From assembly GCA_965204165.1 (NCBI GenBank), contig OZ241969.1, positions 498,910-562,909 on the forward strand: 64,000 nucleotides of DNA. Reading direction: 5' to 3'. Numbering within the stretch: the stretch's first letter is position 1; each line of letters opens with the position of its first letter. The notes beneath the pieces are model-generated. The model was not told the DNA's origin. It saw only the letters and a program-made list of their open reading frames with translations, and ran no database searches. Origin of the DNA: Candidatus Poriferihabitaceae bacterium (GTDB lineage: Bacteria; Pseudomonadota; Gammaproteobacteria; Arenicellales; Poriferihabitantaceae). Both the position numbers and the translations under genes were made by a program. This document shows, in pieces, positions 3,771-22,517 of the stretch.

Positions 3771-5315
3771 CTACCGGGACAGCTGCGGCAGCACGGAGAG
3801 GTCCCCGGCCACCAGGCCGCCGGTTACGAGTTCCCGGGCGACACTGAGTTCATCCGCCAGGTAGCGGTCCCCGGCCAGTGCCGGGACGCGCTCGCGCAGC
3901 ATGGCGATGACCCGCCGGAGCGGCGCGCTGGTCTCAAGGGGCGCGCGGAACCCGATCCCCTGGGCGCTGACCAGCAGTTCGATGCCGACGATCTGGGCGA
4001 GGTTCCGGTTCATGTCCAGCAGCCGTCTTGCGCCGTGGCATGCCATGGAGACGTGGTCCTCCTGGTTGGCGCTGGTGGGTGTGGAATCCACGGAACAGGG
4101 CGCGGCCTTCTGCTTGTTTTCCGCCATCAGCGCGGCGGCGGTGACCTCCGCCACCATGAATCCCGAATTGAGGCCCGGTTCCGGCGACAGGAATGCCGGC
4201 AGCCCGTAGTTCAGGGCCGGATCCACCATGGTGGCGATGCGTCGCTCGGTGATGGCACCGATTTCCGAGACGGCAAGCGCGATCTGGTCGGCGGCGAACG
4301 CCACCGGTTCGGCATGGAAGTTCCCGCCGGACACGATCCGCCCGCCCTCAAGGATCACCAGCGGATTGTCCGTCACCGCATTGGCCTCGATTTCCAGGGT
4401 GGCGGCCGCATGGCGCAACTGGTCGATGCAGGCGCCCATGACCTGGGGCTGGCAGCGCAGGCAGTAGGGGTCCTGAACCCGGTGATCGTTTTCCCTGTGG
4501 GACTCGCGGATTTCGGAATCCCTGAGCAACAAGCGCAGGGCGTCCGCCGCGTCGGCCTGGCCCCGGTGTCCCCGCAGGGCGTGGATTTCGGGACTGAACG
4601 GCTCCGTGGACGCCATCATCGCGTCGCTGGCCATGGCGCCCGTCACCAGGGAACTGCACGCCGCCCGCCAGGCGTCCAGGACGCCCGCAAGGGCCAGTGC
4701 CGCGGAGACCTGGGTGCCGTTGATGAGTCCCAGCCCCTCCTTGGGGCCGAGGACCACGGGCGCGAGGCCGGCCCGCTCGAGGGCGCGGCCGGCCGGCATT
4801 TCCTGCCCCTCCAGCCTGGCCCGGCCCTCGCCCATCATGGCGGCGGTCAGGTGCGCCAGGGGTGCGAGGTCGCCGGACGCACCCACCGAACCCTGACCGG
4901 GAATGACGGGCAGTATCCCCTCATTCAGCATGTCCAGGAGCTGCCGGACAATGGTCCAGCGCACCCCGGAAGCGCCGCGGGCAAGGGAATTGATCTTGAG
5001 CAGCATCACCAGCCGCACAACCTCGTCGGGCAGCGCCTCGCCCACCCCGCAGCAGTGGGACATGATCAGGTTCCGCTGCAGGGTCTCGGTTTCCCCGGCG
5101 TCGATCAGGGTGGTGGCCAGTTTGCCGAAGCCGGTGTTCACGCCGTACACCGCGGCTTCGCCGGCGGCGGCCCGCTCGACGATTCGCGCCGCCCGGTCCA
5201 CGTCCTGCCGGGCTCCGTCATCCAGGGCAACCGTGCCCTGGCGCCGGTAGTGCGATTCCAGGTCCGCGAGCGTCAGCGTGCCCGGGACCAGCTTGAGTGG
5301 GTCGGAGGAAGTCAT
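3771..5315 (-). CDS. hutH: histidine ammonia-lyase
   Basis: 514 aa with the canonical MIO triad in [30 protein letters not shown] and NQEDHVSM motifs are present. Its start overlaps the hutF stop (ATGA). Confidence 0.95.
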
Positions 5316-6697
5316 TGCGCCAGTTGGTTGATAGTCTGCCGAAACCGTTGAAGAACGTCGAGCCGCCCGGGATGACAGCCGTCCCGGACCACCGGCTTGC
5401 CGGCCACATAGACATCGGTCAGCGGGTTTTCATTGCCCGAAAAGACCCAGCTGTCCACCAGTGCGCCCCTTTGCCGCCCCAGGGTGCGCGGCAGGTCGGG
5501 ATCGAGGACGATGAAGTCGGCCCGGGCTCCCGGGCGGATGGCGCCGCCGTCGATGCCGCAGGCCCGGGCACCGCCGAGCGCGCTTTTGGTCAGCAGGTTC
5601 TCGCCGGTGTGCGGACTGTCGCATCCCGCGCCGGCCAGCAGGTTGCGCCCCCGGTGCTGCAGCCTTTGTCCGTATTCCAGCCAGCGCAGCTCCTCCACCG
5701 GGCTGACGGAGATGTGGCTGTCCGAGCCGATCCCGAAACAGCCGCCCTCGCGGAGGAAAGCCGGCGCCGGGAAGATCCCGTCACCCAGGTTGGCCTCGGT
5801 GGTGGGGCACAGCCCCGCCACCGCGCCGGATGCCGCTATCCGGCCGGTTTCCCCGTCGGTGATGTGGGTGGCGTGGACCAGGCACCAGTCCGGGCCGGGG
5901 GAGAATTGATCGTACAGCCACTCCACCGGACGCCTGCCGCTGAACGACAGGCATTCGTCCACTTCCCGCACCTGTTCCGCGACATGGATATGGACGGGCC
6001 GCCCAGCCGGGGCTCCGTCCAGGACCTCGCGCAGCAGGTCCTCGTCCACCGCCCTCAGTGAATGGGGTGCGATGCCGAGTTGCTGACCGGGCTCCAGCCC
6101 GCCCTCGAGCCCGGCGACGATCTCGAGGAAGCCGTCCGCGTCGTTGATGAACCGCTTCTGTCCTTCGCCCGGCGGCAGGGAGCCGAACCCGCCGAACCGG
6201 TAGAGCACCGGCAGCGCGGTGAAGCCGATTCCGGTGTCCCGCGCGGCCCGGGCGCACTGGCGGGTCATTTCCGCCCTGTCGTCATAGGGCCGGCCGGCCG
6301 GATCGTGGTGCAGGTACTGGAACTCGGCGACATGGGTATACCCCGCCTCCAGCATCTCCAGGTAGAGCATCCTGGCGATATGGTACAGCTGGTCGGGCGT
6401 GATTCGTGCCAGCATCCCGTACATGGCCTTGCGCCAGGTCCAGAAGGAATCGTCGACGTCGCCGGCAAGTTCCCCCAGCCCGGCCATGGCCCGCTGGTGG
6501 GCATGGGAATGGAGATTGGGAATTCCGGGCAGCACGACCCCGTCCAGCCGTACCGTGTCCGGGTCCGCATCCTTCAGCCGGATTCCGCTTCGCACCGTAT
6601 CGAAGACGCCGCTCCCGTTCACCCGGAAATGCACGTCTTCCGCCCAGCCGTCGACCAGCAAAACCGATGAACACCAATAGTTTCCTGGCCGGGCCAT
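5312..6697 (-). CDS. hutF: formimidoylglutamate deiminase
   Basis: Amidohydrolase fold with [15 protein letters not shown]. Start set to ATG 6697 ([18 protein letters not shown]...), which matches the usual HutF N-terminus. The longer ORF start at 6745 would overlap hutI. Confidence 0.85.
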
Positions 6698-6743
6698 TGT
6701 GCGACTTGCTTTAGCGGGAACGGCAGTATAGCATACCAGATAC

Positions 6744-7970
6744 ATGTATATACAACTGCTTCAGAACACCCTGCTGGCCCGGCTGGTTGACGGGAACGAC
6801 TACCACCTGTTGCCGGATGCAACCGTGGTGATCGAAGACGATCGCATTGCCTGGGCCGGCCCGGACGCGAATCTTCCCGACCGCTACCGCGGGGCGGACC
6901 GTCTCGACTGCGGCGGACGGCTGCTGACACCCGGACTGATCGACTGCCACACCCACCTGGTCTACGGCGGCAACCGCGCCGGGGAGTTCGAGCGCCGCCT
7001 CCAGGGCGAGGACTACGGGGAAATCGCCCGCCAGGGAGGCGGCATCATGGCCACCGTCCGTGCGACCCGCTCCGCCACCGTGGACGACCTGGTGGTGCAG
7101 TCCCGGCCGCGCCTCGGGGCGCTGGTCGCGGAAGGTGTCACCACCGTGGAAATCAAGTCCGGCTACGGGCTCGAACGGGACACGGAAATCCGCATGCTCG
7201 AGGCCGCGGGGCGCCTTTGCCGGGAAGCGGGCGTTCGCTGCCAGCGGACCTTCCTGGGCGCCCACGCCCTCCCCCCCGAGTTCTCCGGCCGCGCCGACGA
7301 CTACATTGCCCTCGTTTGCGATGACATGCTGCCGCAAGCGGCGGCGGCGGGCGTGGTGGACGCCGTGGACGCCTTCTGCGAGCACATCGCCTTCAGTGTC
7401 GCGCAGACCGAGAGGGTCTTCGACCGGGCACAGGACCTGGGCCTGCCGGTGAAATGCCACGCCGAACAGCTCTCGCACATGGGCGGCGCGGTGATGAGCG
7501 CATCCCGGGGGGCACTGTCCGTCGACCACATCGAGTACCTGCCGGCCGAAAGCGTCGGCAGCCTGGCCGAAGGGAATACCGTGGCCGTGCTGCTGCCCGG
7601 CGCGTTCTATATCCTGAAGGAACGGCAGCTCCCGCCCGTGGCGGCACTGCGGGAACACGGCGTTCCGATCGCGCTCGCCACCGATGCGAACCCGGGCTCC
7701 TCCCCCGTGTTCTCGCCGCTGCTCATCATGAACATGGGCTGCACCCTTTTCGGCCTCACCCCCCTTGAGGCCCTGGCGGGCTTCACCATCAACGCGGCCA
7801 GGGCCCTCGGTCTTGCGGATCGCATCGGCTCCATCGAGCCCGGCAAGGCGGCGGACCTGGCCCTGTGGAACTGCGGCCACCCGGCGGAACTCAGTTACCA
7901 CGTCGGGCTCAACTCCTGTGCGGGGGTGGTCCAGGGCGGCCAGTGGCGGGGCGGGAGGCCGCCGGCATGA
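6744..7970 (+). CDS. hutI: imidazolonepropionase
   Basis: 408 aa with GLIDCHTHLVYGG, KCHAEQLS and ATDANPGSSP motifs of HutI. An in-frame stop lies 5 codons upstream, so ATG 6744 is the only possible start. Confidence 0.9.
   Translation: MYIQLLQNTLLARLVDGNDYHLLPDATVVIEDDRIAWAGPDANLPDRYRGADRLDCGGRLLTPGLIDCHTHLVYGGNRAGEFERRLQGEDYGEIARQGGGIMATVRATRSATVDDLVVQSRPRLGALVAEGVTTVEIKSGYGLERDTEIRMLEAAGRLCREAGVRCQRTFLGAHALPPEFSGRADDYIALVCDDMLPQAAAAGVVDAVDAFCEHIAFSVAQTERVFDRAQDLGLPVKCHAEQLSHMGGAVMSASRGALSVDHIEYLPAESVGSLAEGNTVAVLLPGAFYILKERQLPPVAALREHGVPIALATDANPGSSPVFSPLLIMNMGCTLFGLTPLEALAGFTINAARALGLADRIGSIEPGKAADLALWNCGHPAELSYHVGLNSCAGVVQGGQWRGGRPPA
6745..6754. promoter_or_regulatory. candidate HutC operator (perfect palindrome TGTATATACA)
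   Basis: 10-bp perfect palindrome at the hutI edge of the 46-bp hutF/hutI divergent region, overlapping the hutI ATG (6744). It matches the TGTA-N2-TACA core of enterobacterial and pseudomonad hut operators as I remember them. A hutC repressor gene is in the same locus. Confidence 0.45.
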
Positions 7971-8722
7971 ACCTCGCCGAACTGCAGCACCTGGACCGGA
8001 ACATCGCGTTGCCGCTGTACCAGCAGATCAAGCGCAACATCCGCACCAGCATCCGCAAAAGGCAGTGGCAGCCGGGCACCCGGCTGCCGTCGGAAAACGC
8101 GCTGGTGAACGGTCTTGGCGTCAGCCGCATGACCGTACACCGGGCGCTGCGCGAACTGACCCAGGAAGGCCTGCTCGAGAGAGTGCACGGCCTCGGCACG
8201 TTCGTCGCCAAGCCGCCGCGCCACGCCAGCCTGATCACCCTGCAGGACATCGCCGACGAGATCCGCGAGGCGGGATTCACCCACAACTGTGAAGTGCTCG
8301 AACTCGGGACCGTGAAGGCCGACGCCGCCCGGGCCGGGCTCATGGAGGTGGCCGAGGACGACGGGCTGTACCGCCTCCTCGCGGTCCACTTCCAGGACCG
8401 GGAACCCATCCAGGTCGAGGACCGCCTGGTGAGCCCTTCCCTGGCGCCGGAATTCATCGGACAGGATTTTTCCCGGCATACCGCCACGCAATACCTCGTC
8501 GACCTGATAAAACCGGACGAGATGGAACACATCGTCCAGGCGGTGCTGCCGGACCACTGGACCGCGCAGGCCCTGAACATGGATCCCGCCGAACCCTGCC
8601 TGCAGCTCAACCGCCGGACCTGGAAGGGCGGTCGGGTCGTCACCGGGGTCCGCCTGACCTATCCCGGGTACCGCTATGCCCTGGCGGCCCGTTACCAGAC
8701 CGACCAGTTCACCATCCGCTGA
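7967..8722 (+). CDS. hutC: histidine utilisation repressor (GntR/HutC family)
   Basis: Start moved to ATG 7967 ([25 protein letters not shown]...). It overlaps the hutI stop (ATGA). It has a wHTH ([26 protein letters not shown]) followed by a UTRA-type C-terminal domain. Confidence 0.85.
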
Positions 8723-8733
8723 TCCGCCGAACC

Positions 8734-10407
8734 ATGAAAAGAACCCGCACCGATGACACCCGACGCGTCTCCGCCCCCCGGGGGTCCACCCTGCAGTGCA
8801 AGAGCTGGCTCACCGAGGCGGCCTTTCGCATGATCCAGAACAATCTCGATGCCGAGGTGGCGGAGAATCCGGCGGAACTGATCGTCTATGGCGGCATGGG
8901 CCGCGCCGCCCGGGACTGGGAAAGCTTCGACCGGATCCTGGAGTGCCTGCGGGAACTCGAGGATCACCAGACCCTGCTGGTGCAGTCCGGCAAGCCGGTG
9001 GGGGTCTTTGAAACCCACGCCGACGCGCCCCGGGTACTGATCGCCAATTCCAACCTGGTGCCCGCCTGGGCGAACTGGGATCATTTCAACGAACTGGACC
9101 GCAAGGGCCTCATGATGTACGGCCAGATGACGGCGGGATCCTGGATCTACATCGGCAGCCAGGGCATCGTGCAGGGCACCTATGAAACCTTCGCCGAGGC
9201 GGGCCGCCAGCACTACGGCGGCAAGACCTCCGGCAGATGGGTGCTGACATCCGGTCTCGGCGGCATGGGCGGCGCCCAGCCCCTGGCGGCCACCATGGCG
9301 GGCTTCAGCATTCTCTGCGTGGAATGCGACGAGAGCCGCATCGAATTCAGACTCCGCACCGGCTATCTCGACAAGCGCGCCGCTCATCTTGATGAGGCCC
9401 TGGCCATGATCCGCAGCGCCTGCGAGGCCGGCGAAGCGGTGTCCGTGGGATTGCTCGGCAACGGCGGGGAGATCCTGCCGGAGCTGGTGAGACGCGGGGT
9501 GAAGCCGGATCTCGTCACGGACCAGACCTCGGCCCACGACCCGGTAAACGGCTACCTGCCGGCAGGCTGGACCCTTGGCCGGTGGCACTCGGAACGCCGG
9601 AAGAACCCGCAGCTCGTGGTGGAACAGGCCCGCCGATCCATGGCCGACCATGTCAATGCCATGCTCGCGTTCCACAAGCAGGGAATTCCCACGGTGGACT
9701 ACGGCAACAACATACGCCAGGAGGCCATGAATTACGGCGTGGAAAACGCCTTCGACTTCCCCGGGTTCGTGCCGGCCTACGTGCGGCCGCTGTTCTGCCG
9801 CGGCGTGGGGCCGTTCCGCTGGGTGGCGCTGTCCGGCGACCCGGAGGACATCTACCGGACCGATGCCAAGGTCAAGGAAATGGTGCCGGACGACCCCCAT
9901 CTGCACCACTGGCTCGACATGGCCCAGGAACGCATCCGCTTCCAGGGCCTGCCGGCGCGCATCTGCTGGGTCGGTCTCGGCATCCGCCACCGGCTGGGAC
10001 TGGCCTTCAACGAGATGGTCCGGACCGGGGAACTGAAAGCACCGGTCGTCATCGGCCGCGACCACCTGGATTCCGGCTCCGTGGCCAGCCCCAACCGGGA
10101 GACGGAACTGATGCTCGACGGTTCCGACGCGGTGTCGGACTGGCCCTTCCTGAATGCCATGCTGAACACCGCCAGCGGCGCCACCTGGGTGTCGCTTCAC
10201 CACGGCGGCGGTGTCGGCATGGGCTACTCCCAGCATGCCGGACTGGTGATCGTCTGTGACGGCAGCGAAGACGCCGACCGGCGAATCGCGCGGGTCCTGT
10301 GGAACGATCCCGCCAGCGGTGTCATGCGGCACGCGGATGCCGGATACCAGGACGCACGGCGATGCGCCCGGGAGATGGGTCTCAACCTCGGCGCCATCGA
10401 CCTGTGA
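8734..10407 (+). CDS. hutU: urocanate hydratase
   Basis: 557 aa that reads as typical urocanase throughout ([45 protein letters not shown]). Confidence 0.95.
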
Positions 10408-11448: not shown

Positions 11449-12237
11449 ATGGAAGGTGAATTCAACGCCCTGAGATCGGGCATGTTCGCGGGCATCCTGC
11501 TGCTGATGCTGGTCATTGAACGGATCTGGCCGAAGCGGCGGCAGATCGTCCCGGCCTGGCCCAGGCTGAGCACCAACCTGGGGCTCATCGTCATCGACAC
11601 CCTGGTCGTGCGGCTGCTCCTGCCCCTGACGGTGGTGGGTACGGCTGTATGGGCCACTCAGCAGTCCTGGGGACTTTTCAACCAGGTGCAACTGCCGCGG
11701 GCGCTGGAACTGGTCGCCGCCCTGCTGATACTGGACCTCGCCATCTACCTGCAGCACCGCGCCGCACATCACTTCACCTGGTTCTGGCGGATTCACCGGG
11801 TCCATCATGCCGACCCGCGTTTCGATACCACCACCGGCATCCGCTTCCATCCCCTGGAGATCATCATTTCTACCGTCTACAAGATGCTGCTCGTTGTCCT
11901 TCTCGGACCGTCCGCCATCGCCGTGCTGATCTTCGAGATCGTCCTGAACGGAACCTCGCTGTTCACCCATACCAACGTGGCGCTGCCACGCAGGCTGGAT
12001 GCCGTGCTGCGCCTCGTGATCGTGACGCCGGACGTACACCGGGTGCACCACTCCCACCTGTCGGCCGAAACGAACAGCAACTTCGGTTTCAACCTCACGG
12101 TCTGGGACCGGTTGTTTCACACGTGGAAGGAGCAGCCGGACCGGGGGCATGCCGCCATGGACATCGGGCTGCCGGAGTATTCCGACAACATGCCCACCCA
12201 TCTGGGCTGGTGCCTCTGGCTGCCGTTCACGAAATAG
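11449..12237 (+). CDS. fatty acid hydroxylase / sterol desaturase family membrane protein
   Basis: 262 aa and polytopic, with three His boxes (HRAAHH, HRVHHAD, HRVHHSH). Confidence 0.75.
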   Translation: MEGEFNALRSGMFAGILLLMLVIERIWPKRRQIVPAWPRLSTNLGLIVIDTLVVRLLLPLTVVGTAVWATQQSWGLFNQVQLPRALELVAALLILDLAIYLQHRAAHHFTWFWRIHRVHHADPRFDTTTGIRFHPLEIIISTVYKMLLVVLLGPSAIAVLIFEIVLNGTSLFTHTNVALPRRLDAVLRLVIVTPDVHRVHHSHLSAETNSNFGFNLTVWDRLFHTWKEQPDRGHAAMDIGLPEYSDNMPTHLGWCLWLPFTK

Positions 12238-12327: not shown

Positions 12328-13737
12328 ATGACCATCGCCCTGATCGGACCCTCCGGCGCAGGCAAGGGGACGCAGGCCGCCAGGCTGGTTGCAACCCGCG
12401 ACCTGTTGCACATTTCAACCGGAGACCTGTTCCGCGATGCCCTGGAGAAGAGAACGGCACTGGGATTCCTGACCCGGCAGTACATGAATGCCGGCGAGCT
12501 CGTGCCCAACGAGGTGGTCGGCTCGCTGATCGAGGAATGGATGGTCAAGGTGATGCCCAGCAAGGAAATCCTGTTCGACGGTTTTCCCCGGACCCGTCAC
12601 CAGGCCAACCTGCTGGACGACCTGTCCCGGGTCCAGGACCGCCACCTCAGGGCGGCGATCTACCTGAAGGTGTCGGACGAGGAAATCTCCCGGCGCCTGC
12701 CGGGGCGGATCATCTGCCGCACCTGCCAGACGCCCTACCATGTGGAGCACCGTCCGCCGGCGGTGGAGGGCCGCTGCGACCTGTGCCGGGGTGAACTGCA
12801 TACCAGGGACGACGACATCCCGGCCATCGTGCGGACACGCATCCGTACCTCCCACCGCACCCTGGAGCCGCTGCTGGATCATTACGCGGAATCGGGCAAG
12901 CTGCTGATCGTGGACGGCGAGGGAACGGTGGACGAGGTATTCGAGTCCATCTCCCACGCCATGGATGCCGTCGAGCGGGGCATCGCGGCCTTCGCCACAC
13001 CCGAGGAACTGCACGAAATCCAGCCCCTCAAGGGAACCGTCACCGCCATCAGCACCAGCGAGGCCAGGCGCACGCTGGATGTCGTGCTGCTGGGCGGCCC
13101 GGGTTCCGGCAAGGGCACCCAGGCCAAGCACCTGACGAGAAATCTCGGCCTGGACCACGTCGCCACCGGCGATATCTTCCGCCACCACATCCATTCCGAG
13201 ACCGATCTCGGGAGGCTGGCAAAAACCTACATCGACAACGGCGAACTGGTGCCGGACGACGTCACCGAGGCCATGGTGGAGGACCGCCTGGAACAGATCG
13301 CCCAGGGCCGCGGATTCATCCTGGACGGCTTCCCCCGCACCACCCCCCAGGCGGAGGCGCTGACGGAGATCATGAACAAGCTGCAGCGGCGGCTGGCAGC
13401 GGTAATGCACATCAAGGTGGACGATGACGCCATCGTGGAGCGCCTGTCCAACCGGCTCACCTGCCGCAGTTGCCAGACACCGTTCCACCGGCGCTACAAT
13501 CCCCCGGAGAAAGAGGGCGTCTGCGACAAGTGCGGCGGCGAACTGTACGTGCGGGACGATGACAATCCGGAAACGGTGCGGACCAGGCTGAAGACATACC
13601 ATGCCCAGACCGAGCCGTTGATCGCCTACTACCGGGACGCCGGCCTCCTGATGGATATTGACGGCGAACTGCCGCTCAACGAGGTGACCCGGTCCATGGC
13701 CCACGAACTGGAAAACATCAGGGCGGACCTTTCCTAG
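12328..13737 (+). CDS. adk: tandem (double) adenylate kinase fusion
   Basis: 469 aa containing two complete ADK modules. Module 1 has GPSGAGKGTQ, DGFPRT, CRTC..CDLC and RDDD. Module 2 has GGPGSGKGTQ, DGFPRT, CRSC..CDKC and RDDD. Confidence 0.85.
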   Translation: MTIALIGPSGAGKGTQAARLVATRDLLHISTGDLFRDALEKRTALGFLTRQYMNAGELVPNEVVGSLIEEWMVKVMPSKEILFDGFPRTRHQANLLDDLSRVQDRHLRAAIYLKVSDEEISRRLPGRIICRTCQTPYHVEHRPPAVEGRCDLCRGELHTRDDDIPAIVRTRIRTSHRTLEPLLDHYAESGKLLIVDGEGTVDEVFESISHAMDAVERGIAAFATPEELHEIQPLKGTVTAISTSEARRTLDVVLLGGPGSGKGTQAKHLTRNLGLDHVATGDIFRHHIHSETDLGRLAKTYIDNGELVPDDVTEAMVEDRLEQIAQGRGFILDGFPRTTPQAEALTEIMNKLQRRLAAVMHIKVDDDAIVERLSNRLTCRSCQTPFHRRYNPPEKEGVCDKCGGELYVRDDDNPETVRTRLKTYHAQTEPLIAYYRDAGLLMDIDGELPLNEVTRSMAHELENIRADLS

Positions 13738-14675: not shown

Positions 14676-14786
14676 GGATGCCTGGATTCACATGGGCGGA
14701 TCGCGAGTGTAGCGGTTTTGAAACACACCCGGCTATTTGAGTACACTTCGCCCGTAACCCAACCCACAACCCATCGTTCATTCATC

Positions 14787-15491
14787 ATGCAAAGATTCAG
14801 CGGCAAGAAAGCCATTGTCCTCGGCGGCACCTCCGGTATCGGCCTCGCGGTTTGCCGCCAGCTCCGGGACGAGGGGGCGAACGTCCTCGCCGCCAGCCGC
14901 CGGGGCAGTACGGAAACCGGCGAGGAGGGCATCGAGACCGTGGCCTGCGACGTGCTGGACCGCGAGGCCCTGGACCGGCTTTTTTCCGCCCATGCACCCT
15001 TCGACTTCCTGGTATGCGCCGCCACCGGCGGCCCCCGGGCCCGGGGACCGTTCCTGGACATGGACCTGGACGCCTTCCAGGCATCCTTCGCCAAGCTCTG
15101 GGGCTATACCAACGCCGTCCACAGCGGCACGCCGCATCTGGCCGAGAACGGCGCCATCGTGCTCATCAGCGGGTCACCGGCCCGCAAGTCCGGCCCGGGC
15201 ATGCTCGCCATATCCACGGTCGGCAACGCCGTGGAAGGGTTCGCCCGGGCACTCGCCCCGGAGATTCCCCCCCGGCGCATCAACGTGGTTTCGCCGGGCA
15301 CCATCGACACGCCGATGTTCCCCATGGAAGGCGATGAACGGGCGCGGTATTTACGGGACCAGACCGGAGACAACGCCATTCCGCGGGCGGGAAAGCCGGA
15401 GGAAGTGGCGGAGGCGGTGCTGTTCCTGCTCGGCAACGAATTCGTGACGGGCACCACCGTGGACGTGGACGGGGGCGCGCTGCTGCCCTGA
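14787..15491 (+). CDS. short-chain dehydrogenase/reductase (SDR)
   Basis: Start moved to ATG 14787 (MQRFSGKKAIVLGGTSGIGLAV carries the TGxxxGxG motif). The C-terminus VTGTTVDVDGG is typical of SDRs. Confidence 0.8.
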   Translation: MQRFSGKKAIVLGGTSGIGLAVCRQLRDEGANVLAASRRGSTETGEEGIETVACDVLDREALDRLFSAHAPFDFLVCAATGGPRARGPFLDMDLDAFQASFAKLWGYTNAVHSGTPHLAENGAIVLISGSPARKSGPGMLAISTVGNAVEGFARALAPEIPPRRINVVSPGTIDTPMFPMEGDERARYLRDQTGDNAIPRAGKPEEVAEAVLFLLGNEFVTGTTVDVDGGALLP

Positions 15492-15569
15492 CAGGACCGG
15501 GCGGCGGGCATTGCCCGCATCTCCCCCGCCCGGGCATCCGCCGCGCAATTCCCGGCAAGAGCGGATGCC

Positions 15570-16463
15570 CTACCGCAGTATGCGCCGCCGCTCCCGGAAC
15601 CAGATCACCAGCCCCGCGACAATCACCACCGCCGCGCCGAGGAGTGTCCAACGATCCGGCGGGTGGTGGAATACCAGGTAGCTGAGAGCGGTCATCCAGA
15701 TGATGAAACTGTAGCTGAACGGCGTCAGCATGCTGGCCTCGGCGAATCCATGCGCCCGGGTGATGCATTCGTGGCCCAACCAGCCGAAGAGCGGCGTCAG
15801 CAGCAGGATGTGCCATTCCTGGGAGGTTTCCGGAACCTGCCACGACCAGACGCCGAAAGGCAGCAGTACCAGCGTCCCCACCAGTCCGGCGTAGAACTGC
15901 TGCATCTGTATGGCGACCACGCCCGCCAGCTTGCGTGTCAGCAGGGTGTAGAACGCGAACAGGGTGACGTTGGAGAGCGAAAGCAGCACCGCCGGATGAA
16001 ACTCGGCATCGAACGGCCGGATCGCGATCAGGATCCCGAGGAATCCGGCGACAATTGCAGACCACCGCCAGACCCCCACGCGCTCCCCCAGGAACACCCC
16101 GGACAGCGCGCAGACGATGATCGGGGCGGAAAACATGATGGTGGAGGTCAGGGTCAGGGGCAGGTACCTAAGTGCCATGAAATTCAGCACGGTGGTCAGC
16201 ATCAGCAGCACGCCGCGCAGCACGACCAGGGACATCATGGGAGTACGGAAGCGGCCGAGGGACAACCCTCCCCGGCAGATCAGAACCGTGGATATCAGGA
16301 AATGCCCCGCATAGCGGACGAGCGACACCTGCAGCACGGACAGCCCAGCCAGCACCAGCCATTTCGCGCTGCTGTCGAGCATGGCGAACAGCAGGTAGGC
16401 GAGACACATGAGCAGGATGCCCGGCATCGGGCGGTCGCTCCTGGGGTTGGCGACAATGGACAT
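15570..16463 (-). CDS. DMT superfamily (EamA-like) transporter
   Basis: 297 aa and polytopic. It lies 39 bp downstream of the HAL-like gene on the same strand. Confidence 0.8.
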   Translation of the reverse strand: MSIVANPRSDRPMPGILLMCLAYLLFAMLDSSAKWLVLAGLSVLQVSLVRYAGHFLISTVLICRGGLSLGRFRTPMMSLVVLRGVLLMLTTVLNFMALRYLPLTLTSTIMFSAPIIVCALSGVFLGERVGVWRWSAIVAGFLGILIAIRPFDAEFHPAVLLSLSNVTLFAFYTLLTRKLAGVVAIQMQQFYAGLVGTLVLLPFGVWSWQVPETSQEWHILLLTPLFGWLGHECITRAHGFAEASMLTPFSYSFIIWMTALSYLVFHHPPDRWTLLGAAVVIVAGLVIWFRERRRILR

Positions 16464-16502
16464 GGACTGGGTATCCCCTGCCGGGCAGGGGCATGCTGTG
16501 AA

Positions 16503-18002
16503 TCAGAGGTCTTCGCAGATTCCTCCGGCGATCCGGTCTGCCAGGGCGTCTATGGCATCACCAAGCGGCCGTTCCGCCGCCGCCGGCTCCACCACCTTCC
16601 TGACGCGGTCATGGAGTTCGGCCAGCAACGGGGCCGAGGTCGGACCGCCTCGCAATTCCGCGGCCCGGTCCGCCACCATCATCTCCATGGCGCACAGTTT
16701 CCATCCCAGTTCGACCACGCCCTGCAGACCCTTGACGGCGGCGGGCGCATTGGACTGGATGTCCTCCACGCCATCCGCATTCACACTGGGCCAGACCGGC
16801 ACCGGCATGGCCGCGTGGCCAAGTTCCGCCACCACCGACTCGGCAACCTTCATGAGCGGGGCGAAGCCGTTGGCATCGAGGCCGGGCGCCGCCAGGTACT
16901 GGGGCAGTCCGCTGAAGCGCTCTGAGAGCAGCTTGCTCATTCGGGCAAGCTGCGCCTGGGACAGTTGCACCAGTGCCTGGGACAGGGCGTGGGCGGCGAC
17001 CGTCAGGAGCGGCGTATGAAACGCGCCGCAGGAGATGATGCGGTCCCCGGCAAGGTCGACCACGGGGTTGTCGCTGGCACTGTTGATTTCCGCGCAGGCC
17101 GCCTCCTTCGCGAAATCCAGCGCGGCGAATGCGGCGCCGTGAACCTGCGGAAGGTTCCGTATCGACAGCGGATCCTGCAGCCGCCGGGCATTTGCCGGGT
17201 CGACGATCCGGCTCCCCGCCAGCAGCCGGCGCAGATCCCCGGCGGCCCGGGCCTGCCCCGGCTGCGGATGCAGATCGTCCACCAAGGCATCGAGCGGTGT
17301 CGTGGAGGCCTCGAACGCATCCATCGACATGGCCGCGGCGCCCTGCGCCGCACCGAGCAGGCGTCCCGCGCCGTGGACCGCCAGTGCCATGGCCGCCGCG
17401 GAAAACCCGGAGTGATTCGCCAGGGCGAGACCGTCCCTCGGTCCGGGCGACAGGGGGGCCAGTCCCGCCTCGGACAGCGCCTTAGCGGCATCCATCGTCC
17501 GGCCCCGGGCATCAGTCATCCGCCCTTCCCCGCACAGGGCCAGACCCAGAACAGCCCCCTGGCAGAGGTCGCCGGCACCGATGGAACCGACGCTGCCGAC
17601 CACCGGTGTCAGCCCCCGGTTGAGACACTCGCAGAGCATCTCCGGCACCGAGGCATCCGCGCCCGCGGCGCCTTTCATCAGCGTGTTCAGCCGCACCGCC
17701 ATCGCGGCCCGGACCTGGGTCCTGGACAGGGGCGTACCGATGGCATGGGCCCGGCCCCGCAGGGTTTTCAGTGAAAAGTCCGCCGCCTCCGCCGCGGTCA
17801 GTGTCTCAGTTGCACGGGACCCGAGGCCGGTGGTGAGCCCGTAGACCTGTTCCCCCTTCCCGAGGGCTTGAAGCACCCGGTCCCGGGCCCGGCGCACCCG
17901 CTCAAGACCCGCCTCGTCCAGCGACACTCCGGCGTCGGGCGAGGCGGCGATCCGGGCAAGTTGGTCAAGGGTGAGGCTGCTGCCATCAACGACGACAGCC
18001 AT
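16503..18002 (-). CDS. HAL/PAL-family (aromatic amino acid lyase fold) protein lacking the MIO-forming Ser
   Basis: Start moved to ATG 18002 (MAVVVDGSSLTLDQL...), which shares one nt with the stop of the upstream desaturase gene (TGATG). Family motifs YGLTTGLG, QDPLSIRNLPQVHGA, NSASDNPVV and GVEDIQSN are present. The Ala-Ser-Gly triad reads Gly-Ala-Gly (GSIGAGDL, codons at 17571-17579). Confidence 0.75.
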   Translation of the reverse strand: MAVVVDGSSLTLDQLARIAASPDAGVSLDEAGLERVRRARDRVLQALGKGEQVYGLTTGLGSRATETLTAAEAADFSLKTLRGRAHAIGTPLSRTQVRAAMAVRLNTLMKGAAGADASVPEMLCECLNRGLTPVVGSVGSIGAGDLCQGAVLGLALCGEGRMTDARGRTMDAAKALSEAGLAPLSPGPRDGLALANHSGFSAAAMALAVHGAGRLLGAAQGAAAMSMDAFEASTTPLDALVDDLHPQPGQARAAGDLRRLLAGSRIVDPANARRLQDPLSIRNLPQVHGAAFAALDFAKEAACAEINSASDNPVVDLAGDRIISCGAFHTPLLTVAAHALSQALVQLSQAQLARMSKLLSERFSGLPQYLAAPGLDANGFAPLMKVAESVVAELGHAAMPVPVWPSVNADGVEDIQSNAPAAVKGLQGVVELGWKLCAMEMMVADRAAELRGGPTSAPLLAELHDRVRKVVEPAAAERPLGDAIDALADRIAGGICEDL

Positions 18003-18922
18003 CAGGGCGCGCCGGCAACCGCGGCAGCAGGTTTCCGGCCGAGCGCGCGATAGATCTCCCGGTTCACCCGGAAATAGCCGTGGCCGACATGGACCAGACG
18101 GTCGGATATCAGGCGGTTGGCCTGCGGCAGGCGGTGGAAGGGGATGCCCGCGTAGGCATGGTGCGCGGTGTGGAGATTCATGTTCCAGCAGAGCCGCTGC
18201 AGCAACGGGTTGGTCAGCGTGGTGCGGGTGTTGTCGAACATGTCGGGAACCTCGGGGCAACCGGTATGTTCCGCAAGCAGGAACATGCGCAGCGCCGGCT
18301 GCGCCACCATGACCGGCAGTATCCAGTACCACCACAGCGCCGCAGTCTGGAATACCACGGACAGCGTTGCCAGTGCGCCGTAGATCAGCAGGAACCGCCG
18401 GGCCTCCGCTACCACTGCGTCCCGCCGGGACGCCGGCACGAAATCATCGGCCCGGCCGGAAGCATACCGAAGGAACATGCGGCCCTGGGCAGCCCAGTAG
18501 GGCAGCCCGCTGACATGCCGGACATAGCCCCACCTGGAGCCGGGTTTCGGCACCCCGAGTTCCGGGTCGCCGGGTACCTGGGTGTGGCGATGGTGCGTCA
18601 TGTGGAAGGCCCGGAAGTACCGGGGCGGCAGGAACAGGACCAGTCCGCAAAGGAACGCCACGCCACGGTTCAGGCCGCGCGACGCAAAAGCGGTTTCGTG
18701 AATGGTTTCGTGCAGGGGGCAGAACGAGAAAACCAGCACCACCGCGTAGCCGCACCAGCAGAGCGCCGCCGGCACCGGCGGCAGCCACAGGGAGCCGGCG
18801 GCCAGCAGACCCAGCAGCAGCAGGTGCAGCGCCAGGGCTCCGAGGCCCGCCCCGTCGGTCTTCACCACAAGACCGGACAGGACATCCGGGTCGATTGCCT
18901 GGGATCGTCGTGCCTGGGACAT
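18002..18922 (-). CDS. membrane fatty acid desaturase family protein
   Basis: 306 aa with His boxes HETIH, HMTHHRH and HTAHH, plus TM segments. Confidence 0.8.
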   Translation of the reverse strand: MSQARRSQAIDPDVLSGLVVKTDGAGLGALALHLLLLGLLAAGSLWLPPVPAALCWCGYAVVLVFSFCPLHETIHETAFASRGLNRGVAFLCGLVLFLPPRYFRAFHMTHHRHTQVPGDPELGVPKPGSRWGYVRHVSGLPYWAAQGRMFLRYASGRADDFVPASRRDAVVAEARRFLLIYGALATLSVVFQTAALWWYWILPVMVAQPALRMFLLAEHTGCPEVPDMFDNTRTTLTNPLLQRLCWNMNLHTAHHAYAGIPFHRLPQANRLISDRLVHVGHGYFRVNREIYRALGRKPAAAVAGAP

Positions 18923-19211
18923 GGATCGTTCGGAAATTCCAATAATACCAGGGTGAGTTTATCGGACTCAGGGAGGATGGGGAATCTTCACCCGGCGGCG
19001 GCATGGTGATTTTCATCATCATGTGCCGCGCCGGTTCCATGGTTCCGTTCCGCCCGCGGGACCCTGGCCGGGAACGGTCCCGGCCCCCACATGGAATACG
19101 CTGGGCGGGAGTGCTATTCTCACTCCCGCGACATGGAAAACAGGAGACTGCGCCAGGGCAGGAGCCGCGCACCCGGTCCGGCTGCGGTTCCGATCCGGAA
19201 GAGGTACGCCA

Positions 19212-21572
19212 ATGAACAGTTCCGAAGAAACAAGACGCGAATCCGGGAGGTCCGAGGAGCGGATGGCTGCGCTGAGCGCGGCCATCCTGCGCATCAACGC
19301 GAGTCTGGATCTCGCCACCGTTCTGCAGGAGGTCGTCGACAGCGCCTGCGCGCTCACCGGCGCGCGCCACGGTGTCATCGCCACCGCCGACGAGGCGGGC
19401 GAGATGCGCGAACTTGTCGCCTCCGGCTTCACCGACGAGGAGCACCGGCAGTTGGCGAAGTGGTCCGAAGATGCGCGATTCTTCGAGCACTTCCGGGACT
19501 TTTCGGGGCCGGTGAGTCTCGACGACCTGCCGCCCGAAATCCTCGCGGACGGCAGCCCGGAGCACCCGATGCCGGCCAGGACCTTCCAGGTCACCCCGGT
19601 GCGCCACGGGGGCGAGCACATGGGCAGCTTCTTCCTCGCCGGCAAGGAGGGCGCCCCGGAATTCACCGGGGAGGACGAAGAGGCGCTCGTGCTCTTCGCC
19701 TCCCAGGCCGCCACCGCGATCGCAAACGCACGCGCGCGCCGCGACGAACAGCGCGCCCGGGCGGACCTCGAGGCCCTGGTCGAGACTTCGCCGGTCGGCG
19801 TCGTCGTGTTCGACGCGCGGACCGCACGGACGATGTCGATCAACCGGGAGGCGCGGCGCATCGTCGAGGGACTGAACACCGCGAGCCGCGCTTCGGGAAA
19901 TCTGCTCGAGGTGTTGACCTGCCGCTTCGCGGACGGCAGCGAGGTCGCGTTCCCGGAAATCCCCCTGATCCGCGCACTCGGCAACGCCACCACGATGCGC
20001 GCCGAGGAAATCGTGCTTTCGGTGCCGAACGGGCCCAGCGTCAGGACCCTCATCAACGTGACGCCGATCCGTTCCGACGACGAGGAGGTCGTCTCGGTGG
20101 TCGTCACCCTGCAGGACCTGGCGCCGCTTGAGGAACTGGAACGGCAGCGGGTGGAATTCCTGAGCATGGTGAGTCACGAACTGCGCGCCCCCCTGACCTC
20201 CATCAAGGGCTCGTCCGCCGCGGTGCTGGGTGCCGCGCCCGCGTTGCCGCGGGCCGAGATGCTGCAGTTCTTCCGCGTCATCGACGGCCAGGCCGACCAC
20301 ATGCTGGGCCTGATCGGCAACCTGCTCGACGCCGGCCGCATCGAGGCGGGCACGCTGTCGGTGGAACCGGAATCCTCGGAGGTGGCCGCCCTCGTGGACC
20401 GGGCGAGAAACACCTTCCTGAGCGGCGGCGCCAGGCATGCCGTTCGCATCGAGCTGCCGCCCGCTCTCCCCCGGGTGATGGCGGACCGGGAACGCATTGT
20501 CCAGGTGCTGAACAACCTGCTGTCCAACGCCGCCCGGCACTCCCCGGAATCCACCCCGATCCGCGTGGAGGCGACGCACGAGGGGGTGCATGTCGAGGTC
20601 TCGGTCTGCGACTGGGGCCGGGGCATGCCGCCGGAGATGCTGGCGCAGCTCTTTCGCAAGCATGTCGCCCTTGACGGCGCCAACGCCGGGGGCGGGATCG
20701 GGACAACGGGCCTGGGGCTGGCCATATGCAAGGGGCTGGTGGAGGCCCACGGGGGCCGCATCCGCGCCGAGAGCGCGGGGCTCGGCAAGGGCGCGCGGTT
20801 CGCATTCACGCTGCCGGTGGCCGATGCCGAGGAAGTCCGGCCCCTTCCCCAGCAGCCCCCGGGCCGCCCGGACCTGCCCGGCGACTCACGGGAGAAGCCG
20901 CGCATCCTGATCGTGGATGACGACCCGAAGATGCTGCGCTACGCGCGTGATTCCCTCACTCATGCCGGCTATACCGCGCTGGTGACCGGTGACCCGGAGG
21001 AGATTTCCGATCTGATCAACACGGAAAAACCCCGGCTGGTGCTGCTTGATCTCATGCTGCCGGGGGCTGACGGCATCGAGCTGATGGCGCAGATTCCGGA
21101 ACTCTCCGACCTGCCCGTCATCATCATCTCCGGTTACGGCCACGACGAGACGCTTGCGCGCGCCTTCGACAGCGGCGCGGCGGATTACATCGTCAAGCCC
21201 TTCTCGCCGACCGAGCTCACCGCAAGGGTCGGGGCGGCGCTGCGCAGCCGGGTGAGCCCGGAGCCATTCGTGCTCGGCAGGCTCGCCATCGATTACGAGC
21301 GGCGTCGGGTGACGGTGGGTGCGCGGGCGGTGACCCTCACCGCCACCGAGTACGAACTGCTGCGCATCCTCTCGGTCAACGCCGGGCGGGTGGTGACCTC
21401 CGGGTCGCTGCTGCGCCGGTTCTGGAGCACGCGGAGTCCCGACGATACCGAGCCCGTGCGCACCTTCGTGAAGAAACTCCGGGCCAAGCTCGGCGACGAC
21501 GCGGGCTCTCCCACCTATATCTTCAACGAGCGCGGCGTCGGCTACCGCATGGCAAGACCGGGGGAGCAATGA
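19212..21572 (+). CDS. hybrid sensor kinase / OmpR-type response regulator (GAF-PAS-HisKA-HATPase-REC-wHTH), no TM segment
   Basis: Start moved to ATG 19212 (GGAAGAGG SD). It has the H-box SHELRAPLTSIKG, N-box NLLSNAARH, G-boxes DWGRGM and GLGLAICKG, REC residues (IVDDD, LLDLMLPG, VKPF), and a C-terminal trans_reg_C domain (TEYELLRIL...GVGYRMA). Confidence 0.85.
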   Translation: MNSSEETRRESGRSEERMAALSAAILRINASLDLATVLQEVVDSACALTGARHGVIATADEAGEMRELVASGFTDEEHRQLAKWSEDARFFEHFRDFSGPVSLDDLPPEILADGSPEHPMPARTFQVTPVRHGGEHMGSFFLAGKEGAPEFTGEDEEALVLFASQAATAIANARARRDEQRARADLEALVETSPVGVVVFDARTARTMSINREARRIVEGLNTASRASGNLLEVLTCRFADGSEVAFPEIPLIRALGNATTMRAEEIVLSVPNGPSVRTLINVTPIRSDDEEVVSVVVTLQDLAPLEELERQRVEFLSMVSHELRAPLTSIKGSSAAVLGAAPALPRAEMLQFFRVIDGQADHMLGLIGNLLDAGRIEAGTLSVEPESSEVAALVDRARNTFLSGGARHAVRIELPPALPRVMADRERIVQVLNNLLSNAARHSPESTPIRVEATHEGVHVEVSVCDWGRGMPPEMLAQLFRKHVALDGANAGGGIGTTGLGLAICKGLVEAHGGRIRAESAGLGKGARFAFTLPVADAEEVRPLPQQPPGRPDLPGDSREKPRILIVDDDPKMLRYARDSLTHAGYTALVTGDPEEISDLINTEKPRLVLLDLMLPGADGIELMAQIPELSDLPVIIISGYGHDETLARAFDSGAADYIVKPFSPTELTARVGAALRSRVSPEPFVLGRLAIDYERRRVTVGARAVTLTATEYELLRILSVNAGRVVTSGSLLRRFWSTRSPDDTEPVRTFVKKLRAKLGDDAGSPTYIFNERGVGYRMARPGEQ

Positions 21573-21596: not shown

Positions 21597-22517
21597 CTAT
21601 TCCCTGCGGGGTCTCCCAATCCCGGAGCCCGGGTCCCGGCCGACCGCCATCATCCGCTCCCGCTCCTCCCTGAGACCCAGAAGCGAGTTGACCATCAGGG
21701 TGGTCACGACGATGGCGCCCCCGACCATGGAATGGGCCCCGGGATTCTCTCCCAGCGCCAGCCAGACCCAGACGGGTCCCAGCACGGTCTCCAGCAGCAT
21801 CATCAGGCCCACTTCCGGCGCCGGCAGGTATTTCGGTCCGAGGAACATCAGCGCATTGGCCACCGGCAGCATGATCATGCCCATGACGATGAGCCAGCCG
21901 AGGTCGGCGTTGGTGGTTTCCCCCGGAGCCACCAACGGGGCCAGGAACAGGGCGGTGAAAATGCCGCCAAGGCCGAGCGCGGGCATGATATCGCGGTTGC
22001 GGGCGGCCCGGATGAGGGAAAACTGGGTACCGAGAATGAAGGCGGCGCACAGTCCGACAATGTCCCCGAGCCAGGCCCCCTCGAGGCGGACGCTGCCCCG
22101 GGTGATCACCGAGATTCCCACCATCACCATGACGATGGCGAACCAGGTGCGCCGCGGGACGCGCTCGCGCAGGAACAGCCAGGCGATCACCGCGGCCCAG
22201 ATCGGCGTGGTGCTCAACATGAACAGGGTGTTCGCCACCGAGGTATGGGTGATGGAATAGATGAAGCAGGTATTGCCAAGCCCGAAACAGATCATGATGC
22301 CGTATTCCGCGGCGGAGAACCGGCCGAGGTGCGCGAACAGCCGGCCGCGATAGCGCAGGACGGCGAACAGCGAGATGACGATCCCGTACAGCAGGCAACG
22401 CCAGAACGTGATGGTCAGGGCTTCCGCATGGATCAGCCGTGTCAGCAGGCCGTCGGGGCTGAGGGCGAGAACCCCGAGCATCGTGATCAGATACCCCTTG
22501 GACCGGGTCGACAGCAT
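21597..22517 (-). CDS. DMT superfamily (EamA-like) transporter
   Basis: Start moved to ATG 22517 (MLSTRSKGYLITMLGVLALSPDG...). It shares one nt with the stop of the upstream YcaQ-like gene (TGATG). The protein is polytopic. Confidence 0.8.
   Translation of the reverse strand: MLSTRSKGYLITMLGVLALSPDGLLTRLIHAEALTITFWRCLLYGIVISLFAVLRYRGRLFAHLGRFSAAEYGIMICFGLGNTCFIYSITHTSVANTLFMLSTTPIWAAVIAWLFLRERVPRRTWFAIVMVMVGISVITRGSVRLEGAWLGDIVGLCAAFILGTQFSLIRAARNRDIMPALGLGGIFTALFLAPLVAPGETTNADLGWLIVMGMIMLPVANALMFLGPKYLPAPEVGLMMLLETVLGPVWVWLALGENPGAHSMVGGAIVVTTLMVNSLLGLREERERMMAVGRDPGSGIGRPRRE

Follow-up and report, generated by a model that had tools for sequence, protein, structure and literature searches.

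An ergothionase-like lyase of the histidase fold and its ornithine cyclodeaminase-like partner in a Candidatus Poriferihabitaceae bacterium: possible catabolism of a histidine-derived betaine

Members of the PF00221 family that are deficient in the methylidene-imidazolone prosthetic group (MIO) form a described class of enzymes, the trimethylammonia-lyases (bioRxiv 10.64898/2026.04.22.720169), and here we analysed a protein of this family encoded in a stretch of 64,000 nucleotides (the window in what follows) of a Candidatus Poriferihabitaceae bacterium (contig OZ241969.1, positions 498,910 to 562,909). Among the enzymes of the class, ergothionase splits ergothioneine into thiourocanate and trimethylamine, histidine betaine is the substrate of Swoo_3913 from Shewanella woodyi, and in S. 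oneidensis SO_3299 cleaves N(pi)-methyl-histidine betaine and SO_3057 is an ergothionase. A trimethylammonium substrate is required by all the characterised MIO-deficient members, a conserved Tyr abstracts the beta-proton in the family, and Lys384 of ergothionase binds the thiolate of ergothioneine, this position being Asn or Gln in the histidine-betaine lyases (bioRxiv 10.64898/2026.04.22.720169). MIO can be dispensed with in these lyases because trimethylamine departs without electrophilic help. The gene context of ergothionase comprises genes for thiourocanate hydratase, desulfhydrase and hydantoinase.

Judged by its sequence, the window lyase belongs to the MIO-independent, ergothionase-like branch of the family and, within it, to a distinct and large subfamily whose side-chain pocket is altered. 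We propose, with a probability of roughly 0.62, that this lyase and a partner related to ornithine cyclodeaminase (OCD) would break down a histidine-derived betaine and set trimethylamine free. The original prediction, made from the letters of the window, had seen in the lyase an enzyme of an undescribed pathway. MIO-deficient lyases of PF00221 had however been described already (ergothionase, structure 6s7j, and the histidine-betaine lyases), and the protein is not categorically new, being a variant within a known class; its subfamily is large, widespread and paired with two uncharacterised enzymes.

A lyase of the histidase fold without MIO, and its clade

The proteins of the window were assigned with Pfam profile hidden Markov models, NCBIfam equivalog cut-offs, alignment and a hydropathy scan, and the roles of single residues through alignment to histidine ammonia-lyase (HAL) and ergothionase. 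With the start that gives the lyase 499 residues, homologues align along 100% of that length. The protein reached 309.9 bits against the hutH model TIGR01225 (cut-off 539.15) and 311.4 bits against NF006871 (cut-off 524), and stayed under every NCBIfam equivalog cut-off, so that by those models it is not a histidase, phenylalanine ammonia-lyase (PAL), tyrosine ammonia-lyase (TAL) or aminomutase, as the original prediction had anticipated. The predicted HAL/PAL fold was borne out by an AlphaFold2 model calculated from a clade alignment of 34 sequences (predicted local distance difference test score 91.6, predicted template-modelling (TM) score 0.92), which superposes on the structures of HAL and ergothionase with TM-scores of 0.92-0.94. 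Compared with HutH (the Pseudomonas putida enzyme, 1b8f, and the HutH of the window itself), the lyase has the same fold and tetramer-type architecture (TM-score 0.94) at about 31% identity, and keeps the equivalents of the catalytic Tyr53, of the carboxylate-binding Asn195, Gln277 and Arg283, and of Phe329 and Glu414, whereas the Ala-Ser-Gly triad, Tyr280 and His83 are missing from it. The loss of the Tyr of QDPYSLR, which reads QDPLSIR here, and the retention of the other family residues are therefore as first described.

The codons at 17579-17571 read Gly-Ala-Gly, inside the motif GSIGAGDLCQG, and had been taken for a triad in which the Ser needed for MIO was replaced. Alignment to the P. 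putida HAL and to the window HutH showed that the loop of the lyase is one residue shorter, so the change is a deletion and not a substitution; the conclusion that the protein cannot form MIO stands, the explanation by replacement of Ser does not. This distinction became clear in the set of clade members that we assembled, comprising 144 sequences (120 from protein databases and 24 from metagenomes, the latter found via the OCD partner gene). The residue that follows Ala in the loop is Gly in 56 of these sequences, Ser in 50 and Ala in 38, and hence the constant feature of the former MIO site is the deletion rather than the loss of Ser. A clade devoid of Ala-Ser-Gly does exist, with Gly as only one of the states of its variable residue. 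The catalytic and binding residues are far more constant: Tyr54, Gln276, Arg282, Glu413 and Asp414 are each present in all 144 members and Asn312 in 137, position 279 is L, I, V or T in 143, and the position of Lys385 is Lys in 143 as well. Arg84, with Gly before it, was found in 143 of the 144 sequences and is the sole systematic difference of the clade from both HAL and ergothionase.

The short loop is not a sequencing artefact. Two independent contigs of metagenome-assembled genomes (MAGs; L001 and L002) encode the lyase at 97% identity, and all the 120 closest database homologues (44-98% identity) combine the short loop with the absence of the Tyr of QDPYSLR, its place being mostly taken by Leu. 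Every source name seen for a member of the clade is one of 'histidine ammonia-lyase', 'HAL/PAL/TAL family ammonia-lyase' or 'aromatic amino acid lyase', and none of them is called ergothionase in the sources examined.

Searching the PDB with the clade profile, ergothionase from Treponema denticola (6s7j) was the top match at 329 bits, against at most 316 bits for the HALs. Both proteins have the PF00221 fold and no MIO, and share the identical one-residue deletion in the loop (SSIG-EGDI in ergothionase, GSIG-AGDL in the window), Leu in the place of Tyr280 (QDPLSFR and QDPLSIR, respectively), the catalytic Tyr, the carboxylate-binding Gln, Arg and Asn, the Glu, and Lys384, which corresponds to Lys385 of the window lyase. 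At both of the positions that were compared, namely the loop deletion and the change of Tyr to Leu, the pocket for the leaving group matches that of ergothionase. They differ at the imidazole site, where ergothionase has His preceded by Ser and the clade has Arg preceded by Gly, and in their gene context, an OCD-like enzyme being the companion in the clade of the window lyase. In a neighbour-joining tree the 144 sequences were monophyletic relative to three HALs and ergothionase was their sister, a placement next to ergothionase that is indicative, given the few outgroups of this tree.

We infer from these likenesses that the lyase would bind an N-alpha-trimethylated amino acid, that is a betaine, via the conserved carboxylate site formed by Gln, Arg and Asn, that Tyr54 would abstract the beta-proton, and that trimethylamine would then leave directly, an electrophilic cofactor being unneeded because trimethylamine is a good leaving group. 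The short loop and the Leu in place of Tyr may make room for the bulky trimethylammonium group, and the product would be an alpha,beta-unsaturated acid. Release of trimethylamine from a betaine is thus very probably the reaction of the window lyase. A dead enzyme, or a hutH paralogue in decay, might be suspected from the loss of MIO and Tyr280, a loss that abolishes activity in true HAL and PAL enzymes (the engineered S153A mutant); the strict conservation of the other catalytic and substrate-binding residues in more than 140 diverged members, the intact reading frame, the confident model and the conserved operon partner speak against it, and we consider this explanation extremely improbable.

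The nature of the side chain that the lyase accepts can be approached from the rest of the pocket. Of the pair of residues that bind the imidazole ring, Glu413 is kept and His is replaced by Arg84. With Lys and Glu retained and Arg in the place of His, the substrate is probably a histidine betaine with an anionic or hydrogen-bond-accepting group, as in ergothioneine or its sulfonate. The lyases of Shewanella are similar to the window protein in being MIO-deficient members of PF00221 with the Tyr base and the carboxylate site kept, yet they retain the His and have Asn or Gln instead of Lys, whereas the window protein retains the Lys and has Arg instead of His. They are moreover periplasmic and coupled to flavocytochrome c reductases for anaerobic respiration, while the window lyase is coupled to an OCD-like gene and showed no N-terminal hydrophobic, signal-like segment in the hydropathy scan; it would be expected in the cytoplasm.

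The ornithine cyclodeaminase-like partner and the other neighbours

One genome per GTDB species was scanned for relatives of the lyase (185,579 genomes), and the best 80 of the 521 loci found were analysed; these came from sponge-associated Gammaproteobacteria (including 'Ca. Poriferihabitaceae'), roseobacters, Rhodospirillales, Kiloniellaceae and Hyphomicrobiales. The most conserved neighbour was an OCD-like gene, present at no more than 7 kb from the lyase in 50 of the 80 loci. This strongest partner lies about 5 kb away from the lyase in the window and hence outside the three genes to which the original prediction was confined. The OCD-like protein is 62-75% identical to the window copy across bacterial classes, compared with 43-61% for the lyase itself. 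Its gene usually precedes that of the lyase immediately and in the same orientation, so that only a few bases separate its end from the lyase start, and a divergently transcribed LysR gene often accompanies it. In the window its ATG overlaps the stop codon of hutU (ATGA, 10404-10407), and this uncharacterised enzyme forms the end of the hutI-hutC-hutU operon within a complete canonical hut cluster (hutH, hutF, hutI, hutC and hutU).

The association was also recovered in the reverse direction. Of 80 loci taken around OCD orthologues (69-80% identity) in marine and soil metagenomes, 34 had a PF00221 neighbour, and wherever the motif could be read these neighbours had the short loop and QDP(L/I/V)S, with the exception of one true HutH. 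HutU stood near the OCD-like gene in 10 of the 80 genome loci and in 10 of the 80 metagenome loci, in the latter mostly directly upstream and with soil samples included. A search for literature linking ornithine cyclodeaminase with these lyases, with ergothioneine or with roseobacters returned nothing.

The best NCBIfam match of the OCD-like protein was archaeal alanine dehydrogenase at 184 bits (cut-off 409), no equivalog being reached, and its best PDB match alanine dehydrogenase 1omo (E 8e-42), with SbnB also among its NCBIfam and PDB relatives. The family to which it belongs comprises imine reductases and cyclodeaminases that depend on NAD(P)H, and it would act on the product of the lyase, perhaps removing the 2-substituent reductively so that the adjacent Hut enzymes receive urocanate. 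The kinship with SbnB lends some interest to a different possibility, namely that the lyase works without cofactor on an activated primary or secondary amine, in the manner of aspartase or EDDS-lyase, or in reverse adds an amine together with the OCD-like protein as an opine-type dehydrogenase: SbnB-type enzymes act on N-carboxyalkyl amino acids, and Arg84 and Lys385 could stabilise an aci-carboxylate. Against this possibility, which we hold to be very unlikely, are the ergothionase-like pocket for the leaving group (loop deletion and Tyr-to-Leu change), the strict requirement for trimethylammonium among MIO-deficient members (bioRxiv 10.64898/2026.04.22.720169) and the betaine-type substrate-binding proteins described below, which favour a quaternary amine.

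Immediately around the lyase, the profile matches confirmed the three co-directional and tightly packed genes from which the analysis started (PF00487, PF00221 and PF00892). The desaturase stop and the lyase start have one base in common (TGATG, 18004-18000), and 39 nucleotides separate the lyase from the gene of a transporter of the drug/metabolite transporter (DMT) superfamily. The GC content of the operon is 0.64-0.71 and resembles that of the flanking DNA, so there is no sign of recent transfer; a promoter and terminator scan of both strands of 15300-19400 returned no sites. The coordinates are collected in Table 1. An 804-residue desaturase-lyase fusion (P0007) was considered as Rosetta-stone evidence and dropped, as the last 35 or so residues of its desaturase part are unlike all homologues; P0007 comes from a single ENA metagenome contig, in which a frameshift or an assembly error at the overlap of stop and start probably created it.

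Table 1. Features of the window discussed in the text (window positions, given in reading direction for the minus-strand operon genes)
Feature	Position	Strand	Basis or remark
Desaturase-like protein, 306 aa	18922..18002	-	PF00487, E 1.7e-39
HAL-fold lyase, 499 aa	18002..16503	-	PF00221, E 3.9e-115, profile positions 1-466 of 466
Lyase: Tyr54 codon in YGLTTGLG	17841..17843	-	alignment; family beta-proton-abstracting Tyr
Lyase: Arg84 codon	17751..17753	-	alignment; site of HAL imidazole-binding His83; clade signature
Lyase: loop GSIGAGDL	17565..17588	-	one residue shorter than MIO-forming GSVGASGDL
Lyase: QDPLSIR	17157..17177	-	alignment; Leu279 for HAL Tyr280
Lyase: Lys385 codon	16848..16850	-	alignment; equivalent of ergothionase Lys384, Val in HAL
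EamA/DMT transporter, 297 aa	16463..15570	-	PF00892 twice; hydropathy scan
OCD/mu-crystallin protein, 335 aa	10404..11411	+	PF02423, E 1.4e-53
hutU, urocanate hydratase	8734..10407	+	directly 5' of OCD-like gene
FA_hydroxylase membrane di-iron protein	11449..12237	+	PF04116; 3' of OCD-like gene
Short-chain dehydrogenase/reductase (SDR)	14718..15491	+	PF13561; convergent with operon
hutH	3771-5315	-	
hutF	5312-6745	-	
hutI	6744-7970	+	
hutC	7865-8722	+	
GAF-PAS-HisKA-HATPase-REC-OmpR fused regulator	19212..21572	+	divergent from operon

The desaturase-like protein has three His boxes (HETIH-71, HMTHH-107 and HTAHH-251, following the pattern HX3H, HX2HH, HX2HH) and hydrophobic segments. It resembles GntB, CrtW/CrtR and acyl-lipid desaturases in the PF00487 domain, the three His boxes and the membrane segments, but its matches are far below the cut-offs (31 against 380 bits for GntB, 26 against 475 for CrtR) and no NCBIfam equivalog cut-off was reached. 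GntB is a membrane di-iron L-arginine gamma-hydroxylase, so that proteins of PF00487 can act on free amino acids. In the survey the desaturase immediately preceded the lyase, in the same orientation, in 11 of the 80 loci and was within 7 kb in 17-18, about 20%; a few alphaproteobacteria (L019; L028, Cochlodiniinecator piscidefendens; L051; and L065, a MAG) have variant arrangements, that of L065 being desaturase-OCD-lyase, and in three of three alphaproteobacterial genomes checked desaturase homologues of about 50% identity had no PF00221 neighbour. The desaturase is hence an accessory partner in some lineages only. The EamA/DMT protein, which has the two EamA repeats and about 10 hydrophobic segments of its superfamily, occurs at the lyase in 3 of 80 loci (L001-L003), all at least 89% identical to the window, and is predicted to be a lineage-specific transporter.

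Conserved linkage of the three genes thus held for the order of desaturase and lyase in the 11 loci and failed for the exporter and for most occurrences of the desaturase. The fused regulator, a complete two-component system in one chain, does not travel with the operon: intact copies occur in L001 and L002 alone (MAGs 97-98% identical) and L003 has fragments, so that it is a recent insertion between the third DMT gene and the desaturase. The SDR recurred near the lyase in 13 of 80 loci (66-74% identity in L004-L007). The PF04116 protein, with weak similarity to OlsE (90 bits, cut-off 475), is conserved only in L001-L003, and both it and the DMT protein were rejected as conserved partners, each being present in 3 of 80 loci; on a plasmid of Alisedimentitalea scapharcae a gene of the 'sterol desaturase family' (L081 9737-10714) flanks the OCD-lyase pair. 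In sponge gammaproteobacteria the loci L013-L015, L022, L045 and L057 also encode an acyl-CoA synthetase of the NDP-forming type and an enoyl-CoA hydratase. Among 116 genes counted on either side of the lyase-OCD pair in 84 loci there were LysR 13 times, glutaminase 5, urocanase 3, desaturase 3, EamA 3 and N-formylglutamate amidohydrolase 2, and no third conserved partner, whether a transporter, a sulfite- or trimethylamine-handling gene or another, was found beside the pair in these loci.

These data also bear on the first interpretation of the operon, in which desaturase, lyase and DMT protein would constitute a biosynthetic pathway for modification and export of a lipid or small molecule. 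The translational coupling of desaturase and lyase, the maintenance of their order in 11 diverged loci (44-55% lyase identity), their linkage in other arrangements in L019, L028, L051 and L065 and the presence of a second di-iron protein (PF04116) after the OCD-like gene would all suit it. The desaturase is nevertheless missing from about 78% of the loci and stands alone elsewhere, the DMT gene is confined to near-identical genomes, the active site of the lyase is that of a soluble small-molecule enzyme, and the regulators and neighbours (LysR, HutC, uptake transporters of the ATP-binding cassette (ABC) type and hut genes) are those of catabolic loci. Considering that the context, with LysR or HutC, hutU or hutG, betaine ABC transporters and CoA-dependent enoate enzymes, points to the catabolism of an imported betaine, we judge a lipid-modification and export pathway very improbable. 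Under betaine catabolism the desaturase-like and PF04116 proteins, and the luciferase-like proteins of rhizobia (see below), may be non-homologous oxygenases that carry out an accessory oxidative step.

Several other features were observed near these genes. In the window, a third EamA/DMT gene (21597-22517, minus strand) and a gene for an AlkZ-like DNA glycosylase (PF06224; 22517-23779, minus strand) share one base, the start of the DMT gene falling on the stop of the AlkZ-like gene; the order AlkZ-like, DMT, desaturase, lyase appears to be ancestral in sponge gammaproteobacteria (L004, L005, L007 and L013-L015), and in L004 and L005 the third DMT gene is directly upstream of the lyase, with no desaturase. 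A substrate-binding protein of the OpuAC type (PF04069), encoded at 444-1436 on the minus strand 2.3 kb from hutH, could be a HutX-type binder of histidine or betaine; any permease and ATPase genes belonging to it would be situated before the first position of the window. In two Gemmobacter MAGs (L063 1-1116 and L071 3581-5911) a protein of about 777 residues, resembling by eye the flavoproteins trimethylamine dehydrogenase and N-methylproline demethylase, is encoded just ahead of the OCD-lyase pair; coming from two loci only, this hints weakly at methylamine metabolism. Finally, a 469-residue reading frame of the window (12328-13737, plus strand) contains two complete adenylate-kinase units in tandem, with the P-loops GPSGAGKGTQ and GGPGSGKGTQ and the four-Cys zinc lids CRTC...CDLC and CRSC...CDKC, and the locus is conserved in L003 (cluster c83); fused double adenylate kinases are unusual in bacteria.

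The lyase-OCD pair in rhizobia and Streptomyces

The pair was also found in annotated replicons, and alignment showed the short loop, QDPLS(Y/L)R, the Arg and the Lys in every one of their lyases. In Rhizobium johnstonii 3841 (pRL12), Martelella mediterranea (pMM593) and R. rhizogenes the gene order is hutC, lyase, a substrate-binding protein of the glycine-betaine type (PF04069), OCD-like gene, a PhnD/SsuA-type substrate-binding protein (PF12974), two permeases and an ATPase, the lyase of these clusters being annotated 'hutH'. The repressor gene hutC overlaps the start of the lyase in the rhizobia and lies just upstream of it in Martelella, and in the rhizobia a CoA-transferase gene, an SDR gene and a gene for a MaoC dehydratase come before the cluster. 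In Sinorhizobium sp. B11 and Rhizobium sp. CC-CFT758 the order begins with a betaine-type ABC transporter, continues with two genes for luciferase-like monooxygenases and ends with the OCD-like gene and the lyase; in CC-CFT758 a LysR gene stands ahead of the cluster. On a linear plasmid of Streptomyces chartreusis (NZ_CP108841.1, L169 6994-9449) the OCD-like gene, which is unannotated there and 66-70% identical to the rhizobial ones, and a MIO-less lyase (41%) stand beside a divergent ABC transporter of the OpuAC type (PF04069), and transporters of this type adjoin the pair in all six of the replicons or strains named here. That the OCD-like gene is so highly identical in different phyla suggests that the module has spread horizontally; its range comprises marine Alpha- and Gammaproteobacteria, sponge symbionts, rhizobia and Streptomyces.

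The rhizobial branch may have a counterpart among studied enzymes. An 'ergothioneine sulfonate catabolic pathway' of Agrobacterium radiobacter, ergothionase included, is cited in PMC13405746. R. rhizogenes encodes a member of 499 residues with Arg84 and Lys385 (P0290) on a contig of 2,650,913 bp, in the hutC cluster described above, and the anionic 2-sulfonate of such a substrate would fit Arg84 and Lys385. R. rhizogenes is the species that now includes A. radiobacter K84, and it was reportedly Yan, Huang and Zhang (ACS Catal 2022) who placed ergothionase within the sulfonate pathway. Since R. rhizogenes has P0290, the rhizobial branch may already be characterised, although a second and different MIO-less paralogue exists in the species and might be the enzyme that was studied. 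The marine and sponge versions differ from this rhizobial type in lacking the ABC transporter and having desaturase-like genes.

The second R. rhizogenes paralogue (516 residues; L173 559-2109, minus strand, chromosome CP049214.1; also in L172) is a PF00221 protein that reads GSVGY---LIATSH, with a three-residue deletion, and QDALSLR; it keeps the imidazole-binding His, has no equivalent of Lys384, and adjoins an OpuAC-type ABC transporter of its own and a CaiB-type CoA-transferase. It may be a separate betaine lyase that lost MIO independently.

Enzymes that handle enoates recur in these neighbourhoods: CoA-transferase, MaoC and SDR in rhizobia, acyl-CoA synthetase and enoyl-CoA hydratase in sponge gammaproteobacteria. 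Together with the replacement of the imidazole-binding His by Arg in 143 of the 144 sequences, the SDR genes in 13 of 80 loci and the glutaminase that adjoins the pair in 5 loci, they would agree with an enzyme of the same class acting on a non-imidazole betaine with an acidic or carbonyl side chain (of the aspartate, glutamate or serine/threonine type), bound by Arg84 and Lys385, the enoate then being degraded via CoA thioesters and not by HutU. Such a substrate would leave the links with HutC, HutU and HutG unexplained and is at odds with the retention of Glu413 and of the ergothionase Lys; besides, we know of no lyase for a betaine of this kind, and we therefore regard this alternative as unlikely.

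Proposed function and its significance

Taking the results from the active site, the clade and the gene neighbourhoods together, we favour the catabolism of a histidine-derived betaine by the lyase and its OCD-like partner. The linkage with hut genes and the retained Glu and Lys are the reasons for which the betaine is probably derived from histidine; that it is ergothioneine or its sulfonate specifically is a tentative suggestion, which we would put below even odds. A number of observations weigh against the proposed function. The identity between lyase and ergothionase is only about 26%, and their sister placement comes from the neighbour-joining tree of few outgroups. Arg84 replaces the His that known ergothionases and histidine-betaine lyases use for the imidazole, so the substrate may not be imidazole-based. 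We saw no ErtB-E gene of the known ergothioneine pathway adjoining the lyase, the 116 flanking genes being without the set of thiourocanate hydratase, desulfhydrase, hydantoinase and carbamoylase of the five-step ErtA-E pathway, and no conserved transporter or trimethylamine-oxidation gene appeared in the flanking census of the marine loci. The reaction proposed for the OCD-like enzyme has, to our knowledge, no verified precedent, and the role of the desaturase is not explained by betaine catabolism.

A more daring version of the proposal would have lyase and OCD-like enzyme as a horizontally spread two-enzyme module that makes trimethylamine and urocanate from a histidine betaine bearing sulfur (ergothioneine or its sulfonate) or from selenoneine. 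The OCD-like enzyme would perform a new NAD(P)H-dependent, reductive removal of the C2 substituent of the imidazole ring, and non-homologous oxygenases would have been recruited for an oxidative step, the desaturase-like di-iron protein here and luciferase-like monooxygenases in rhizobia. We consider it a long shot in this complete form; if true, it would give a 'fatty-acid desaturase' a new role outside lipids.

About 520 of the 185,579 species genomes encode a relative of the lyase, and their annotations could be corrected by the signature of the clade, which consists of the one-residue loop deletion, QDPLSxR, Gly-Arg at 83-84 and Lys385. The co-conserved OCD-like enzyme and the recurrent oxygenases provide testable hypotheses for new reactions. 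Should trimethylamine indeed be released from betaines of the ergothioneine type, these genes would represent an unrecognised route in marine, sponge-symbiont and rhizosphere bacteria, covering the turnover of a widespread antioxidant, the output of trimethylamine, which is relevant to climate and health, and the entry of carbon and nitrogen into histidine utilisation.

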